From contig DUFS01000077.1 in the NCBI GenBank assembly GCA_013331805.1, positions 716 to 11,018 of the forward strand: 10,303 bases of DNA. Reading direction: 5' to 3'. The stretch comes from Candidatus Micrarchaeota archaeon. GTDB lineage: Archaea > Micrarchaeota > Micrarchaeia > Anstonellales > Anstonellaceae. Of the stretch, positions 1,606-8,793 are shown in pieces (position 1 is the first letter of the stretch; every line of letters begins with the position of its first letter). Position numbers and translations under genes: made by a program. Below the pieces are notes generated by a model. The model was not told where the DNA came from and did no database searches. It saw only the letters and a program-made list of their open reading frames with translations.

Positions 1606-1923
1606 TTACCCACTTTCCAACATCATCAATCTGTCGCAAAGCCTGCGATAGACTTCCTTTCTTTTTTCTTGGCTCAGCGTAAACAGCCTTTTTACGACAG
1701 CTTCCTCCGAAATAGTGAATATGTAGTTCAATTTGATGACACTTTCTTTAATTGCCCCTTCTGCCCGCGTCAGAGGGACACCTTTCATATTTGGGTTGCT
1801 GGTTATTCCTGCGACCACGGCATTTCCAAGCTCCTCGAAAAGGACCAGCGCTGGCCGCTGTTTCACTCCTGGCGTGTCAGCGAACTGTATTTTTGCCAGA
1901 ACAATTTCCCCGGCTTTAAACAT
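1606..1923 (-). CDS. Type II toxin, MazF/PemK family endoribonuclease
   Basis: MFKAGEIVLAKIQFAD...KQRPALVL...VVAGITS is the PemK/MazF pattern, with catalytic Arg and Thr retained. ATG 1923 overlaps the upstream gene's end by 8 nt and is preferred over 1944. Confidence 0.88.
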   Translation of the reverse strand: MFKAGEIVLAKIQFADTPGVKQRPALVLFEELGNAVVAGITSNPNMKGVPLTRAEGAIKESVIKLNYIFTISEEAVVKRLFTLSQEKRKEVYRRLCDRLMMLESG

Positions 1924-2140
1924 GTTCCCATGCCTCGTCAGCATCGTTGTCCCAGAGCTCCTTCATCTTCTTTTTCTGGATGTTGTGAAGGTATTCGTCA
2001 TATTGGTCCATTTTGCTGCCCTTTCTTCCTTTGACGAGGCTGGAGATGACTTCATTGTAGCTTTGCCTAGGATGCTGCTTCATCCTCCCCAAGAGGGATA
2101 GCAACCGCCTCTCGACCTGTATTGTAGTGAAATCGCCCAT
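1916..2140 (-). CDS. Cognate antitoxin: ribbon-helix-helix-like N-terminus, acidic WDNxxDEAW C-terminus
   Basis: 74 aa gene directly upstream of and overlapping the toxin. TTIQV..L...L..MK.HPRQSYNEVI..L is RHH-like, and the tail is KELWDNDADEAWEHV. SD AGGTGG precedes ATG 2140. Confidence 0.8.
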   Translation of the reverse strand: MGDFTTIQVERRLLSLLGRMKQHPRQSYNEVISSLVKGRKGSKMDQYDEYLHNIQKKKMKELWDNDADEAWEHV

Positions 2141-2180
2141 TATAGCCACCTATAGCTTGTTATAGTAAAATATAATAAAG
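2141..2180 (-). promoter_or_regulatory. TA promoter/operator with four 10-bp-phased TATA(G/A) boxes
   Basis: The plus strand reads tatagccacc tatagcttgt tatagtaaaa tataataaag, with units starting at 2141, 2151, 2161 and 2171. Confidence 0.6.
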
Positions 2181-2191
2181 CTTTCTCTTTT

Positions 2192-3973
2192 CTAAATCAG
2201 CCTTCTGTCGGTTATCGCAAGTATTTCCCCGAGCGCGGCCTTCCCGTCCTCCCCCAATCCGTCAGCGCAGCAGGAGAGGAGCTCATCCGACTCCTTCCTT
2301 GTTATGTGAGTGAAAAGGAAATCGCCTTCTGAAAAGGACTTTCCGCACACCGCGCCTTCCACTGAAATCGCAAGCTGATCGCCCCTGTTCGCCTCGCTTA
2401 TTCCCTTTCCCTCTTTTTGTATTTCGCGCACCTCGCCGATTATTTCGCCCTTGGCGCTTATCAGCCGCACGCCCTTCCTCAGCTTGCCCAGGATTATCTC
2501 TACCCCGAATATTGCGGGCTTGCTTGCCCTGAAGGTGTGCCCTGGAAGCGCAAGTATTTTTGCAGGAAGGGGGAGCCTCTCTGCAGCCGACTCCGAGCTT
2601 TTTTTCTTCTGCTCAATAACCCAGGCCGCATAGTCGTCGCAAAGCGAGTAGATTACTTTCGAGCTGAATATCTTCACCCCTGACCTTGCAGCCTCCTCGG
2701 CAGCGTCATCCGCCACTGCCACGTTGAAGGAGAGCACCACGCCCTTGAGAGGCTCGGACTGCGCGACCACAGAGGCGTCCACAACGTCCTTTTTTCCAAC
2801 AGGCCCGATGCTCGCCCGCTTGATGTCCACTTCCTGGGAGGCAAGGAGCTTTTGGAGCGCCTCAAGCGAACCCAGCGTGTCCGCCTTGACTATAACGCCG
2901 TTTTTCTCGGACTCGAAGATGATTTTCCGGATTATGTCCTGCATTTCCGCAAGCTCGTCTGTGTTGGGGTTGCCGTCCTCAACCAGGAGCGGCGAGCCTG
3001 AAAGCGCGCCCTCCAGGCCGGGCGCGTATATCTTCACTCCGGACGCAGCGTGCACTTCGTCCACATACTCGTACTTGTCGCCCTCGCTGCTCCCCATGGG
3101 CCTGGGCTTGAGAAGGCCCCGCACCCTCACCTTTGCCGACCCGTTCATTGTCCCGAAAATTATCTCGTCGTTCTTGCGGAGCACTCCGTCGTAAATTATG
3201 ACATCGATAGTGGTCCCGAGCCCCTTTTCCTCCTTTACTTCAAGCACGCTGCCCCTGCCTGCAGACGCCTCTTCGGTTTTCAGCTCCTTTTCCAGGAATT
3301 TCTGGGAAAGCCCTGCAATGGAAAGGAGCAGCTCGGGCAGCCCCTCGCCAGTCTTTGCCGAAACAGGGATTATGGCGATCTGCTTGGTGAAGTCAGTCAC
3401 CCTGTCGAACCTTTCGGACTCCAGCCCCAGCTCGTGCATCTTGCCCACCAGGTTGTACAGCAACTCGTCCAGCCTGGACTGCACCTCTGGCTTTTGCGCA
3501 TCCACGCTGGAAATTATGCCGCACTGCCCCTCCGAGCCTGCTGGCGGGCTTTTCCAGCCCTGTACAAGATCCATCTTGTTTGCGGCAAGCACAAAGGGCG
3601 TCTTGAACTCGCGGAGAATGCGGATGGACTCCAGCGTCTGGGGCTGGAAGCCCTGGGCAATGTCCACCACCAAAACCGCAATGTCCGCAATGCTTCCTCC
3701 CCGCTCGCGAAGATGCGTGAAGCTCTCGTGCCCCGGCGTGTCGATGAAAAGAAGCCCTGGAATCGTGAAGGATAACTTGCTTCTTGCCAGCACCATGGAG
3801 CAGGTCTCCTTAATGGAATCCAGCGAGACTTCAGACGCGCCGATGTGCTGCGTGATTGCGCCTGCCTCCTTTTTCGCAACAGATGTGCTTCGTATGGAAT
3901 CCAATAAACTGGTCTTCCCGTGGTCAACGTGTCCGAGCAATACGACAATCGGCTGTCTAATTTTTTTCTCCAT
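2192..3973 (-). CDS. infB: Translation initiation factor IF-2 (aIF5B)
   Basis: RQPIVVLLGHVDHGKT (G1), EAGAITQHIGA (G2), IDTPGHE (G3), NKMD (G4), SAKTGEG (G5) and VIVKADTLGSLEAL. 593 aa, the size of intein-free archaeal aIF5B. Confidence 0.97.
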   Translation of the reverse strand: MEKKIRQPIVVLLGHVDHGKTSLLDSIRSTSVAKKEAGAITQHIGASEVSLDSIKETCSMVLARSKLSFTIPGLLFIDTPGHESFTHLRERGGSIADIAVLVVDIAQGFQPQTLESIRILREFKTPFVLAANKMDLVQGWKSPPAGSEGQCGIISSVDAQKPEVQSRLDELLYNLVGKMHELGLESERFDRVTDFTKQIAIIPVSAKTGEGLPELLLSIAGLSQKFLEKELKTEEASAGRGSVLEVKEEKGLGTTIDVIIYDGVLRKNDEIIFGTMNGSAKVRVRGLLKPRPMGSSEGDKYEYVDEVHAASGVKIYAPGLEGALSGSPLLVEDGNPNTDELAEMQDIIRKIIFESEKNGVIVKADTLGSLEALQKLLASQEVDIKRASIGPVGKKDVVDASVVAQSEPLKGVVLSFNVAVADDAAEEAARSGVKIFSSKVIYSLCDDYAAWVIEQKKKSSESAAERLPLPAKILALPGHTFRASKPAIFGVEIILGKLRKGVRLISAKGEIIGEVREIQKEGKGISEANRGDQLAISVEGAVCGKSFSEGDFLFTHITRKESDELLSCCADGLGEDGKAALGEILAITDRRLI

Positions 3974-5344
3974 TCACTCAACCATTTGCTGTTTTATCTG
4001 TTCATATTCTTCAAGTTTCCGAACCCCTTTATCTGTTAGGGCATAAATAAATGCATTGCTCCTCTTTCTTTTCTTTAGATATCCACCCGTCCTCAATTTT
4101 TGTAAAAAGGCCCGACTGCCGATTACCGATATGCCTAGAACGTCTGCAATTTGCTGCGACGTCAAATTTCCACCCTTAACTACTGCCAAATACTCGGCAG
4201 GACGGGTATTCCTCATTCCAAAAAATAATTTTAGTAATTTTTCTTTTCTTTTTGCATGCGTGATTGCATTGCTGGCCAGTAATTTTTTATAGTTCTCATG
4301 TCCAAATATATTGACGTTCCAAAAACCCTTTATGCCTGGGATAAACCGTTCCCTCCCACATTCGACGCCGATTTTTTTGCAAATCTTCCTGAAGAAAATT
4401 GCATTTTCTTGGTTTTCAGTTGTATATGATATGTTCGCTACACTTCCACCACGTTTAGAGACGCAGATATCCCCCCTCGAAAGACCTCTAAAAAAGCTGA
4501 GCGCGTGATGTTTATTACTTGTTGCCAACCGTTTTGCAATTTTTAATAACTCGTAGAAGAGTTCGCCAATAGCGACCCCGTTTATCGTCAATAAGCAGAT
4601 TCCTTTTTCGGACTTAACGCTGTTATTTTCATAGAAGTTGATCTTATCTTCTGAAAAATCATGCGATGACCAAAACTCCTTAAGAAGTTCCTGATTCTGT
4701 GTTTCATTATGTAGGATTTTCACACTAAAGTCCTTTTTTGAAAAACCAAATCGTTTCAATGACTCGGCAAACCACAAAATTTGTTCCGGATCCCCGTTGC
4801 TAAAGATCATTGAGTCGAGATTCTTCCCATGTTTTCTAGATTTTTTACCTTCACAGTGAAACGCACCCATCAGCTCAAAGAAATCAAAATTTGGTTGAGG
4901 TTTGATGGGGATGAATCTGTTGAGGATAAACCCTTTCGAACCACGACTATACACCCAGATGTAAACCTTTTCACCTAGATCAAACACGTAAAATGGTTGG
5001 CCTTGTTTCGTCCGATTCTTAATATTCGTGAGCAAATCGATTTGTTGTTTAGGTGACGAAATCTTTCTTACCCTTTTCGCGACCTTAATAAGTTCAAAGT
5101 CGGATTTTTTCTTATTAATTACATCGCCAATGCTCCGCGGAATTGTAAATGCATAAGTAAAGCTGCTCCTTGCTTTGTGCTTATGAAAAACGGTAGGAAA
5201 AAGGGTATTCTTGAACTTAAGGAGAAGAGCGTCGTCTTCTTCAAATCCGAATTCCTTGGCAGCTTCACGATGCACAAAACATTTGTAAGAATAGGACTTG
5301 GCTGGGCCCTTCCCCATCTTAAGTAAACTGCCGGATATCTTCAT
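3974..5344 (-). CDS. Free-standing double-motif LAGLIDADG homing endonuclease-like protein with C-terminal winged HTH and possible AbrB-like N-terminus
   Basis: Motif 1 LMGAFHCEG (4873-4847) is followed by MIFSNGDPEQILWF. Motif 2 FRGLSRGDI (4492-4466) is followed by ISYTTENQENAIFFRKICKKIGV. The wHTH is LTSQQIADVLGISVIGSRAFLQKLRTGGYL...IYALTDKG. Three hand-counted 60-nt lines gave 35-37% GC versus 62-63% in two lines of mid-infB. Confidence 0.72.
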   Translation of the reverse strand: MKISGSLLKMGKGPAKSYSYKCFVHREAAKEFGFEEDDALLLKFKNTLFPTVFHKHKARSSFTYAFTIPRSIGDVINKKKSDFELIKVAKRVRKISSPKQQIDLLTNIKNRTKQGQPFYVFDLGEKVYIWVYSRGSKGFILNRFIPIKPQPNFDFFELMGAFHCEGKKSRKHGKNLDSMIFSNGDPEQILWFAESLKRFGFSKKDFSVKILHNETQNQELLKEFWSSHDFSEDKINFYENNSVKSEKGICLLTINGVAIGELFYELLKIAKRLATSNKHHALSFFRGLSRGDICVSKRGGSVANISYTTENQENAIFFRKICKKIGVECGRERFIPGIKGFWNVNIFGHENYKKLLASNAITHAKRKEKLLKLFFGMRNTRPAEYLAVVKGGNLTSQQIADVLGISVIGSRAFLQKLRTGGYLKKRKRSNAFIYALTDKGVRKLEEYEQIKQQMVE

Positions 5345-5364
5345 AATTATATTTTACCATAATC

Positions 5365-5372
5365 ATTTATAA
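5365..5372 (-). promoter_or_regulatory. Putative TATA box of the LAGLIDADG-wHTH gene (leaderless)
   Basis: TTATAAAT on the minus strand, 21-28 nt upstream of ATG 5344, preceded by purine-rich gaaagatagcg. Confidence 0.6.
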
Positions 5373-5420
5373 CGCTATCTTTCACTATATCTTTACCCCA
5401 TAAAAATACTGTCTTTTACT

Positions 5421-5912
5421 TTACCTGTTCTCCCCTTTGTACTTTCCCTCGTAGCCTTTTTCCGCCTTTGCCTCCATCCTGACGAACACCAGCTGCATGA
5501 CCTTTGCGTTCTTGTGAAGCACTATGCCTTTCGGATTGTGCACCAGGAGAAGCGACTCGCTCCTTCCGTGGTAGCCAGGGTCCCAGACCGCGCACCTCAC
5601 ATCAGCCCCGCAGCGCAGGAGAGAGGAGCGCGGGAAGCCGAATGCAGCCGCATAGAGCGGGATTTCCACGTACTCGTTGTAGATTATCTTGTAGCAGCCA
5701 GGGGGAAGGCGGATTTTTCCCTCGGCATCAAATCCCATTGCGCTTGCCTTGCTGATTCTCCGCCTGGAGTTGTCAAAGTCGATTTCCCCTTCCTCTTCCA
5801 ATCTCTGCACTTCCTTGAGCGTAAGGTCTATGCCCGCAGGCTGCACCTGGCTTGCGTTGACAATGTCCGCCACGCACTTTGCCTGCAACACAATGGATCC
5901 CGGAATGACCAT
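5421..5912 (-). CDS. dut: Archaeal-type dUTPase (deoxyuridine 5'-triphosphate nucleotidohydrolase)
   Basis: Motifs QVQPAGIDLTL, IDFDN, FPRSSLLRCG, AVWDPGYHGRSESLLLVHN, QLVF and GYEGKYKGEN. SD GGGAGG lies upstream. Confidence 0.9.
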   Translation of the reverse strand: MVIPGSIVLQAKCVADIVNASQVQPAGIDLTLKEVQRLEEEGEIDFDNSRRRISKASAMGFDAEGKIRLPPGCYKIIYNEYVEIPLYAAAFGFPRSSLLRCGADVRCAVWDPGYHGRSESLLLVHNPKGIVLHKNAKVMQLVFVRMEAKAEKGYEGKYKGENR

Positions 5913-8298: not shown

Positions 8299-8793
8299 TC
8301 ATCTTTTTTTGCTGATTTCAAGCTTCAGGTAAGGCTTTATCCAGTCGTAGAAGTCCTCCGAGATTATCGCGAGCTTGCCCCTTTCCTTTTTCACGCGGAA
8401 TCCTAAGCGGAGGAGGACAATCTCGTCCGTTTTGTCGCCGATAAGGTAGGGTATGTCCATGCCTGAAACCGAGCCTGCAAAGCCGCCCCTGGCATCGAAA
8501 ACGCCTGCAAAGTAGCTTGCTGCAAACTCGTTCTTGTGCTTCAGCCTTTCCTCCCGCTTAACAAATTCTGAATCCAGCCAGGATCGCACCGAGGAGTTGT
8601 AGAAATAGCACTTGAAAATCGGGCCTTCAATGTATTTCACCTTGTCCGGCAGGCAGAGCTTTTCATCCAGGCAAAGCTTCAGGAATGCCTCGCAAAGCTC
8701 GCGGTGCCCCTCCACGCCAACTCCTTCCTTGGTCCTGCGCGACTTCCAAAGCCCGAGAAGGTATGCCCTGGCAGGCGACATCGTGTATTTCAT
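8299..8793 (-). CDS. Compact degenerate double-LAGLIDADG-like protein, probably nuclease-dead
   Basis: MSPARAYLLGLWKSRR resembles the S.ELAY.LG entry into motif 1, and SYFAGVFDARGG resembles motif 2. The C-terminal FYDWIKPYLK resembles the F...I.PY ending of these domains. The start could be 8793 or 8781. Confidence 0.6.
   Translation of the reverse strand: MKYTMSPARAYLLGLWKSRRTKEGVGVEGHRELCEAFLKLCLDEKLCLPDKVKYIEGPIFKCYFYNSSVRSWLDSEFVKREERLKHKNEFAASYFAGVFDARGGFAGSVSGMDIPYLIGDKTDEIVLLRLGFRVKKERGKLAIISEDFYDWIKPYLKLEISKKR

Follow-up and report, generated by a model that had tools for sequence, protein, structure and literature searches.

The window analysed here is a stretch of 10,303 nucleotides (nt) from the genome of a Candidatus Micrarchaeota archaeon (family Anstonellaceae; GenBank assembly GCA_013331805.1, contig DUFS01000077.1, positions 716 to 11,018). 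On its minus strand, between the dUTPase gene dut and infB, the gene for aIF5B (IF-2), lies a free-standing gene that we call X (3974..5344). We propose that X is probably part of an intronless-homing cassette that targets the P-loop DNA of infB. Its product has a LAGLIDADG endonuclease fold with both motif acids retained, the gene is patchily distributed among relatives that have empty sites at the same position, a junction in sequence identity falls within the start of infB, the linkage to infB is constant, and one copy of X has decayed.

X is an open reading frame (ORF) of 456 amino acids (aa) with its own ATG and TGA, outside any intron or intein, and its TGA (3976-3974) directly abuts the ATG of infB (3973). 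The infB gene (2192..3973, 593 aa) was recognised by its Pfam domains and by NF003078 (757 bits), and its P-loop GHVDHGKT forms residues 14-21, with the K/T junction at 3914/3913. The dut gene (5421..5912; NF002598, 188 bits), which stands directly before infB in cassette-free relatives, is separated from X by a spacer of 76 nt (5345..5420; GC 0.24) that is kept between the two carriers of the genus and that we count as part of the cassette. A sequence-only reading of this stretch had placed the ORF, its motifs, the abutting stop and start codons and the K/T junction at these positions, and all were right when we re-read the window. Its GC estimate of about 36% for X was slightly low; we measured 0.392, compared with 0.565 for infB, 0.557 for dut and 0.541 for the remaining window, and the GC content at third codon positions (GC3) was 0.41 in X versus 0.70 in infB and 0.71 in dut. 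As that reading had also stated, infB is uninterrupted and intein splicing motifs are absent. A Pfam scan found no intein or Hint domain in X and infB is continuous, hence X is not an intein.

An AlphaFold (AF2) model of X, with a predicted local distance difference test score (pLDDT) of 84.2 and a predicted template modelling score (pTM) of 0.79, shows two alpha/beta domains packed against each other via two LAGLIDADG helices (residues 155-169 and 278-288). This core, approximately residues 146-380 (4205..4909, minus strand), aligned best with PI-PfuI (Z 15.1, root-mean-square deviation 3.4, 186 aligned residues), followed by the TliVMA intein (Z 14.6), WhiA (13.3), I-Tsp061I (13.2) and I-DmoI (12.8). 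Foldseek returned the same enzymes as top matches, and the second domain of X is homologous to the endonuclease domain of the IF-2 intein according to hhalign (Prob 97.6, E 4.7e-12, 119 columns). The two-domain LAGLIDADG fold that had been predicted from the letters is therefore borne out by the model. Motif 1, LMGAFHCEG, comprises residues 158-166 (4847..4873) with the acid E165, and motif 2, FRGLSRGDI, residues 285-293 (4466..4492) with the acid D292.

Two further modules flank the core. The tail (residues 375-456) superposes on the winged helices of MexR, MarR and SlyA (Z 13-14), which together with weak winged helix-turn-helix matches in Pfam (residues ~383-455) indicates a MarR/ArsR-like winged helix at approximately residues 381-456 (3977..4204, minus strand). 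A profile search against PDB sequences likewise matched only the winged helix-turn-helix (AspA at E 2e-4) and gave no LAGLIDADG match. At the other end, approximately residues 1-95 (5060..5344, minus strand; domain model pLDDT 85.8) form a beta-barrel that is probably DNA-binding and resembles AbrB, DUF1905 and B3 domains. Modelled alone, the first ~90 residues scored highest against 2d9r (Z 8.2) and 2glw (Z 7.7), both of them small beta-barrel proteins; as these scores are middling, the assignment is tentative. The models thus indicate that X is a LAGLIDADG endonuclease whose single chain holds two core domains and, in addition, two modules that probably bind DNA.

X belongs to a large family. 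A word-indexed search turned up five relatives. With an exhaustive profile search the number was 274 at E≤1e-3, falling to 108 at E≤1e-10 and to 27 at E≤1e-30, and the majority have 350-570 aa. A Pfam scan that took in 66 of the 149 newly returned proteins matched LAGLIDADG_3 (PF14528) at E≤0.01 in 48 of the 66, aligned to motif 2 of X; among the 15 scanned members of the X subfamily five had this match, and P0020 alone scored above the cut-off (28.1 vs 22.5 bits). In several of the 66 the N-terminus also matches MazE_antitoxin/AbrB, DUF1905 or B3, and the C-terminus matches winged helices. We found no relatives of X in viral contigs. In an alignment of 20 subfamily sequences (30-70% identity), 22 columns are invariant and 29 nearly invariant, the motif acids among them: R286, G287, R290, G291 and D292 are invariant and C164, E165 and G166 nearly so. 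The host genome, of 1.19 Mb and 91.5% complete, also encodes a canonical LAGLIDADG paralogue of 467 aa, here called Y, which is 23% identical to X over the matched segment and 22% over the whole alignment. Its canonical motifs (GLFDGDGS opposite motif 2) align column for column with LMGAFHCEG and FRGLSRGDI, so that E165 and D292 stand opposite the E and D of Y. The claim that both motifs keep a catalytic acid thus survives the comparison with relatives.

The distribution of X is patchy. infB was found in 20 of the 23 genomes of the genus, and X stands between dut and infB in two of these 20, the window genome (G000) and G021, where the stop of X and the start of infB abut as in the window. The other 18 have dut followed by infB without X, and so provide the empty alleles that the sequence-only reading had called for. 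The dut-infB gap in the empty loci is 1-110 nt in 16 genomes, 455 nt in G019 and 735 nt in G017. We rejected the two large gaps as remnants of X because they hold unrelated ORFs, of 124 aa in G019 (L010) and of 232 aa on the opposite strand in G017 (L017); the dut-infB junction is an insertion hot spot. Searching with the single X protein as query, we found X in two of 61 order-level genomes, and searching 401 genomes of the phylum with a subfamily profile gave three full copies (G000, G021 and G322) and one decayed copy (G342). Matches in G063 and G105, which were weak, partial and not beside infB in the loci fetched, were left out as other family members.

In a host tree built from infB (from VDHGKT onward), dut and dcd, G021 falls within a clade of 99/100 support together with five X-free genomes, and G000 lies elsewhere. 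The carriers are thus not sisters, and the expected conflict between the distribution of X and the host tree is present. The unlinked marker TyrRS agrees, with G021 85-88% identical to the five X-free genomes and 77% identical to G000. The GC content of X is 6-18 points below that of its neighbour in nine of nine intact loci. Contigs from four public DNA runs of four studies span infB-X-dut at ≥99% identity; one of these runs may be the source of the window DNA, but since runs from other studies also bridge the region, the junctions are not an assembly artefact. From these sequence comparisons, X appears to be a mobile rather than a vertically inherited gene.

The ends of the cassette can be placed by comparing carriers with empty alleles. 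All 17 readable cassette-free alleles of the genus start M-x-[LI]-R-Q-P-I-V-[VA]-V-M-G-H-V-D-H-G-K-T (the called start of G020 adds two residues, MVMPIRQP...). The infB start in the three Micrarchaeota carriers is two residues longer and reads M-x-[KS]-[KR]-I-R...[LIV]-L-[GA]-H. When G021 was compared with its sister clade, infB identity rose from 0.51 (nt 1-30) through 0.67 (nt 16-45) to 0.75 (nt 31-60), and from nt 46 onward it was 0.83-0.91, in most windows at the clade's own level. The divergence hence ends at nt ~40-45, that is at codons ~14-15, the Gly-His of the P-loop. The last 30 nt of dut in G021 show no drop in identity (0.81), which together with the junction in infB delimits the transferred unit to window positions ~5420 to ~3930, from the dut stop to infB codon 14-15. 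The first ~14 infB codons (3932..3973, minus strand) are thus carrier-specific flanking sequence of the presumed target gene, as expected for co-conversion. A TATA-like box, TTATAAAT, lies at 5365-5372, ~21-28 nt before the ATG of X, and is also present in G322; we infer that TTATAAAT may be the cassette's own TATA-type promoter.

X was found at the 5' end of infB in all ten loci with usable flanks, namely the window, G021, G322, L028, L029, L036-L039 and the decayed copy in G342 (L037 and L039 share their junction sequence; the metagenomic L040-L042 end inside X and are outside the count). It lies on the same strand as infB and 0-32 nt upstream in nine of these, and is divergent in L028. At least six different genes neighbour X on its far side: archaeal dut, a PF00692 dUTPase, a HEAT-repeat protein, Trm1 (twice), AICARFT/IMPCHase and PhoU (twice), with an ORF without Pfam match in L038. 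The proposal that homologues would sit beside infB therefore holds whatever the far-side gene. The X ORF is intact in nine loci; in G342 its LAGLIDADG core (~residues 189-361) is deleted. In L029 (5434-7200), the infB downstream of a Woesearchaeota homologue of X encodes the P-loop GNVDSGKT instead of GHVDHGKT, possibly a further means by which the target is altered.

Five of the ten loci (L036, L037, L038, L039 and G342) have an insert of 29-32 nt in infB, placed within the His codon of GH^VDHGKT, which corresponds to His15 of the window (3929-3931, minus strand); the insert brings in a stop codon or shifts the frame. The minimum-energy fold of all four distinct inserts is a bulge-helix-bulge: an outer helix, one strand of a 4-bp helix, a hairpin and a 3-nt bulge on each side, with the order outer helix, 4-bp helix, 3-nt bulge, hairpin, 4-bp strand, 3-nt bulge and outer helix. 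One bulge reads ACA (ACT in L038) and the other AAA. Covariation is seen in the 4-bp helix (TCGG/CCGA, TTGG/CCAG and TTGG/CCAA), and the hairpin sequences are unrelated. Excising the stretch between the bulges restores the infB frame and the P-loop. Bulge-helix-bulge cleavage falls after the second bulge nucleotide; in these inserts, a cut after the third would give the same protein. The pattern matched one of the 401 phylum genomes, G342, the carrier of the decayed X, which has kept its mini-intron. A shuffle control was weak, as 0-12% of shuffles passed loose criteria that only two of the six real inserts passed, and the intron reading therefore rests on six concordant cases. The window genome encodes a tRNA-splicing endonuclease and RtcB. 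RtcB itself (contig C72, 27-2753; L077) matches in two pieces ~1.4 kb apart within one stop-free frame of 960 aa, and looks intein-bearing.

We considered two other explanations for the inserts. Ribosome hopping of the gene 60 type, suggested by a GGA followed by TAG in tyrS, was rejected because the sole matching landing codons would delete residues of the HIGH motif or the P-loop. A split infB protein was thought unlikely since it would leave a 13-residue fragment with half a P-loop. The infB of the window has no insert, and a short, presumably protective insert accompanying the endonuclease gene is accordingly seen not in the window infB but in relatives (five of the ten loci) and, within the window genome, at the paralogue Y. 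The claim that X spreads without splicing thus stands for the window and fails for half of the related cassettes, which carry a predicted spliced mini-intron. Codons 13-15 of the window infB still read TCGG plus ACA, as in L036 and G342.

Y has the same layout as X. In the window genome (contig C19; L002, 1342-3851) and in G021 (L004) it stands as an insertion with a membrane-protein gene on one side and tyrS (NF006330, 375 bits) directly downstream; the two copies are 58% identical, and Y was found in none of the other genomes among the 61 searched. All 20 Y-free genomes of the genus have an intact TyrRS start, with the membrane-protein gene upstream in 19. Frame-shifting inserts break up tyrS immediately ahead of its HIGH motif (EISG^...HLGSG) in the two carriers; bulge-helix-bulge conformers of these inserts with two AUA bulges would excise 19 nt in G000 and 29 nt in G021. 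These conformers lie 1.9 (G000) and 0.1 (G021) kcal/mol from the minimum-energy fold. Excision restored the frame by script in G000 and by eye and constrained fold in G021, whose insert escaped the stricter motif script owing to a bulge in its inner helix. Two paralogues with the same layout, each at a nucleotide-binding motif, are hard to explain except by targeting.

We propose the following mechanism. A cassette of ~1.5 kb, comprising X, the AT-rich spacer before it and ~14 codons from the start of infB, and sitting exactly between dut and infB, would have arrived by homologous recombination. X would most likely cut cassette-free infB alleles in the P-loop DNA, at codons ~11-20, and repair from a cassette-bearing copy would transfer X together with the adjoining infB start, that is, intronless homing with co-conversion. 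The junction of G021 at the P-loop and the mini-introns of relatives at the same spot point to the 5' region of infB as the target, and together with the carrier-specific infB starts and the intein site they suggest 3911..3943 (minus strand; codons ~11-21) as the target region. The resident allele would presumably be spared because codons 11-14 are altered in the window, which reads CTC GGA CAC near the site compared with ATG GGC CAT in empty alleles, and by the mini-intron elsewhere. After fixation X could decay, as in G342. Cleavage, the exact target, immunity and the passage of DNA between cells are thus steps that we infer from the comparisons.

Several observations weigh against this proposal. 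X itself has no LAGLIDADG match in Pfam, NCBIfam or PHROGs, so that the assignment rests on structure and on relatives. Motif 2 lacks Gly9 and is two residues shorter than that of Y, and activity could therefore be altered, for example to nicking, or lost. The layout of a LAGLIDADG scaffold plus a helix-turn-helix is also that of the regulator WhiA. The X copies of G000 and G021 are 70% identical and their infB genes 72%, which gives no sign of recent transfer between the two, and a long residence with losses may be compatible with these values. No contig that skips X, which would have marked an empty allele among near-identical strains, was found in the four DNA runs. Finally, the G021 allele differs from empty alleles only in ~6 nt before GGC CAT, a thin basis for immunity.

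These points feed three alternatives. X could be an inactive relic of a cassette that once homed and is now merely carried in the dut-infB operon. The missing Gly9, the 70% identity suggestive of long residence, the lack of presence/absence polymorphism among near-identical strains and the existence of a decayed relative would all fit. We nevertheless consider this unlikely, because the ORF is intact in nine loci and the 22 invariant and 29 nearly invariant columns include the motif acids; that the subfamily as a whole keeps the unusual motif 2 also speaks for functional selection. Alternatively, X could be a domesticated, WhiA-like LAGLIDADG DNA-binding regulator of infB or of a dut-infB operon. 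WhiA ranks high among the structural matches (Z 13.3), X combines a C-terminal winged helix-turn-helix with an N-terminal AbrB-like barrel, its motif 2 is non-canonical yet strictly conserved, and it always adjoins infB. This regulatory reading is nonetheless quite improbable: X keeps both acids, occurs in two of 61 and three of 401 related genomes whereas infB is universal, has a foreign GC content in nine of nine loci and has decayed once, and neither the recombination junction inside infB nor the same arrangement of Y before tyrS would be expected of such a regulator.

It is very unlikely that X is an old vertical gene of the genus that was lost many times. Its divergence roughly parallels that of infB and its position in G000 and G021 is identical, as this would predict, but the host tree would require at least 4-6 losses, and with each of them the initial 14 codons of infB must also have reverted to the ...VMGH form that 17 of 17 empty alleles show. 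In addition, the GC3 of X would have stayed at 0.41 next to 0.70 in its surroundings, and the junction of G021 against its sister clade is sharp.

Beyond the homing cassette proposed for the window, a broader reading is plausible, if slightly less likely than not. Cassettes of the X family might be vehicles that plant tRNA-type (bulge-helix-bulge) mini-introns in archaeal protein genes, and the P-loop DNA of infB would then be a three-way hot spot, invaded by inteins (at K/T), by endonuclease-plus-mini-intron cassettes (at the His codon) and by intron-free cassettes. As the exon half of the intron helix, together with its bulge, can still be read in the window allele (TCGG plus ACA), this would be a cassette that lost its intron. 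If so, a free-standing endonuclease would drive a complete cycle of intron gain, decay and loss in the protein genes of archaea.

Free-standing homing endonucleases that cut a neighbouring conserved gene are textbook knowledge for T-even phages. X resembles the T4 seg and mob genes, as represented by mobE (PMC2790892), in being intergenic, in the cut of a neighbouring conserved gene of endonuclease-free genomes (predicted for X) and in gene conversion with co-conversion of flanks. Those enzymes are GIY-YIG or HNH endonucleases acting in phage co-infections, whereas X is a LAGLIDADG protein in cellular DPANN genomes. Another close arrangement is that of T4-type MobA, an HNH nickase of phage, with the 50-nt bypass insert of gene 60, over which the ribosome hops (Bonocora et al. 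2011, related in bioRxiv 10.1101/2022.08.31.505936). According to that account, a free-standing endonuclease gene likewise lies just upstream of a conserved target gene, the target-gene flank is co-transferred and the target gene contains, at or near the presumed recognition site, a short non-coding insert comparable to those linked to Y and to the relatives of X. X differs from MobA in being a LAGLIDADG protein on an archaeal chromosome, the inserts of its relatives fold as bulge-helix-bulge, and the infB of the window is insert-free.

The sequence-only reading had given the K/T of the P-loop as the insertion site of IF-2 inteins. We examined 14 intein-bearing aIF5B proteins, and all ten that could be parsed confirm this, reading GHVDHGK (GHVDSGK in P0251), then C...HN, then T; the match to the intein-type model NF011418 picks up again at residue 21 of infB, and the intein site lies 15-17 nt downstream of the mini-intron site. 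X shares with these inteins the gene, the P-loop, a homologous endonuclease domain and occurrence in Micrarchaeia, but it has its own start and stop, no Hint domain and a position outside infB. Inteins are missing from the best 150 family-profile matches, so X is not a recent escapee from an IF-2 intein. Inteins are frequent in aIF5B proteins, one of which comes from a record named for Micrarchaeia; P0156, a partial record starting inside the intein, combines an aIF5B 72% identical to the window infB with a LAGLIDADG_3 intein. By its sequence, P0156 indicates that the lineage of X also hosts the intein form of infB invasion.

I-DmoI and I-Tsp061I share with X the single-chain two-domain fold (Z 12.8-13.2), an archaeal host and a link to bulge-helix-bulge introns, but their ORFs lie inside large rRNA introns, whereas X lies outside its proposed protein-coding target and has two extra DNA-binding domains. 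WhiA, a transcription factor of Gram-positive bacteria, has the LAGLIDADG scaffold followed by a C-terminal helix-turn-helix, as X does. WhiA has lost its catalytic acids and is vertically conserved, and X, which keeps its acids and is patchy, is unlike it in both respects. As in the cbf5 pre-mRNA of Crenarchaeota, which has a bulge-helix-bulge intron in a protein-coding gene (PMC2738675), tRNA-type introns are predicted in archaeal protein genes here, in infB of the relatives of X and in tyrS of the window genome. An upstream LAGLIDADG gene co-occurs with the infB and tyrS introns, whereas the cbf5 abstract mentions no linked endonuclease gene. Full-text literature searches returned no description of free-standing LAGLIDADG genes beside archaeal protein genes, of free-standing intronless-homing endonucleases for archaeal chromosomes, or of LAGLIDADG ones aimed at protein-coding genes; nor did they return introns in infB or tyrS, or, outside cbf5, tRNA-type introns in archaeal protein genes.

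Read along its minus strand, the window carries, in order, a PAP2-family membrane protein, a 190-aa membrane protein, dut, X, infB and a MazF-type toxin-antitoxin pair, beyond which dcd lies on the plus strand. The pair, a MazF/PemK toxin of 112 aa and a small VapB-like antitoxin of 77 aa (1606-2149, minus strand), stands between infB and dcd and is absent from all 20 other genus loci examined (tblastn, E≤1e-5), a second strain-specific insertion beside infB. A 164-aa ORF (8299-8793, minus strand) contains two LAGLIDADG-looking strings, has a genome-typical GC content and matches no family. It is present in 39 of 41 relatives and is thus a conserved core gene, in contrast to the patchy X.

Overall, the locus offers a natural experiment: filled and empty sites occur within one genus, the junction is mapped, one copy has decayed, and sister cassettes have mini-introns at the very codon concerned. 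The special value of the case lies in combining the first two of these with overlap of an intein hot spot. It yields a target prediction for a new LAGLIDADG specificity, a site of ~20-30 bp in a universally conserved GTPase motif. For annotators, an essential gene that looks split or frameshifted in a DPANN genome, as tyrS does here, may contain an intron instead of being broken. Three kinds of selfish element appear to converge on the same few codons of aIF5B, and the cassettes suggest a route by which tRNA-type introns may enter archaeal protein genes.

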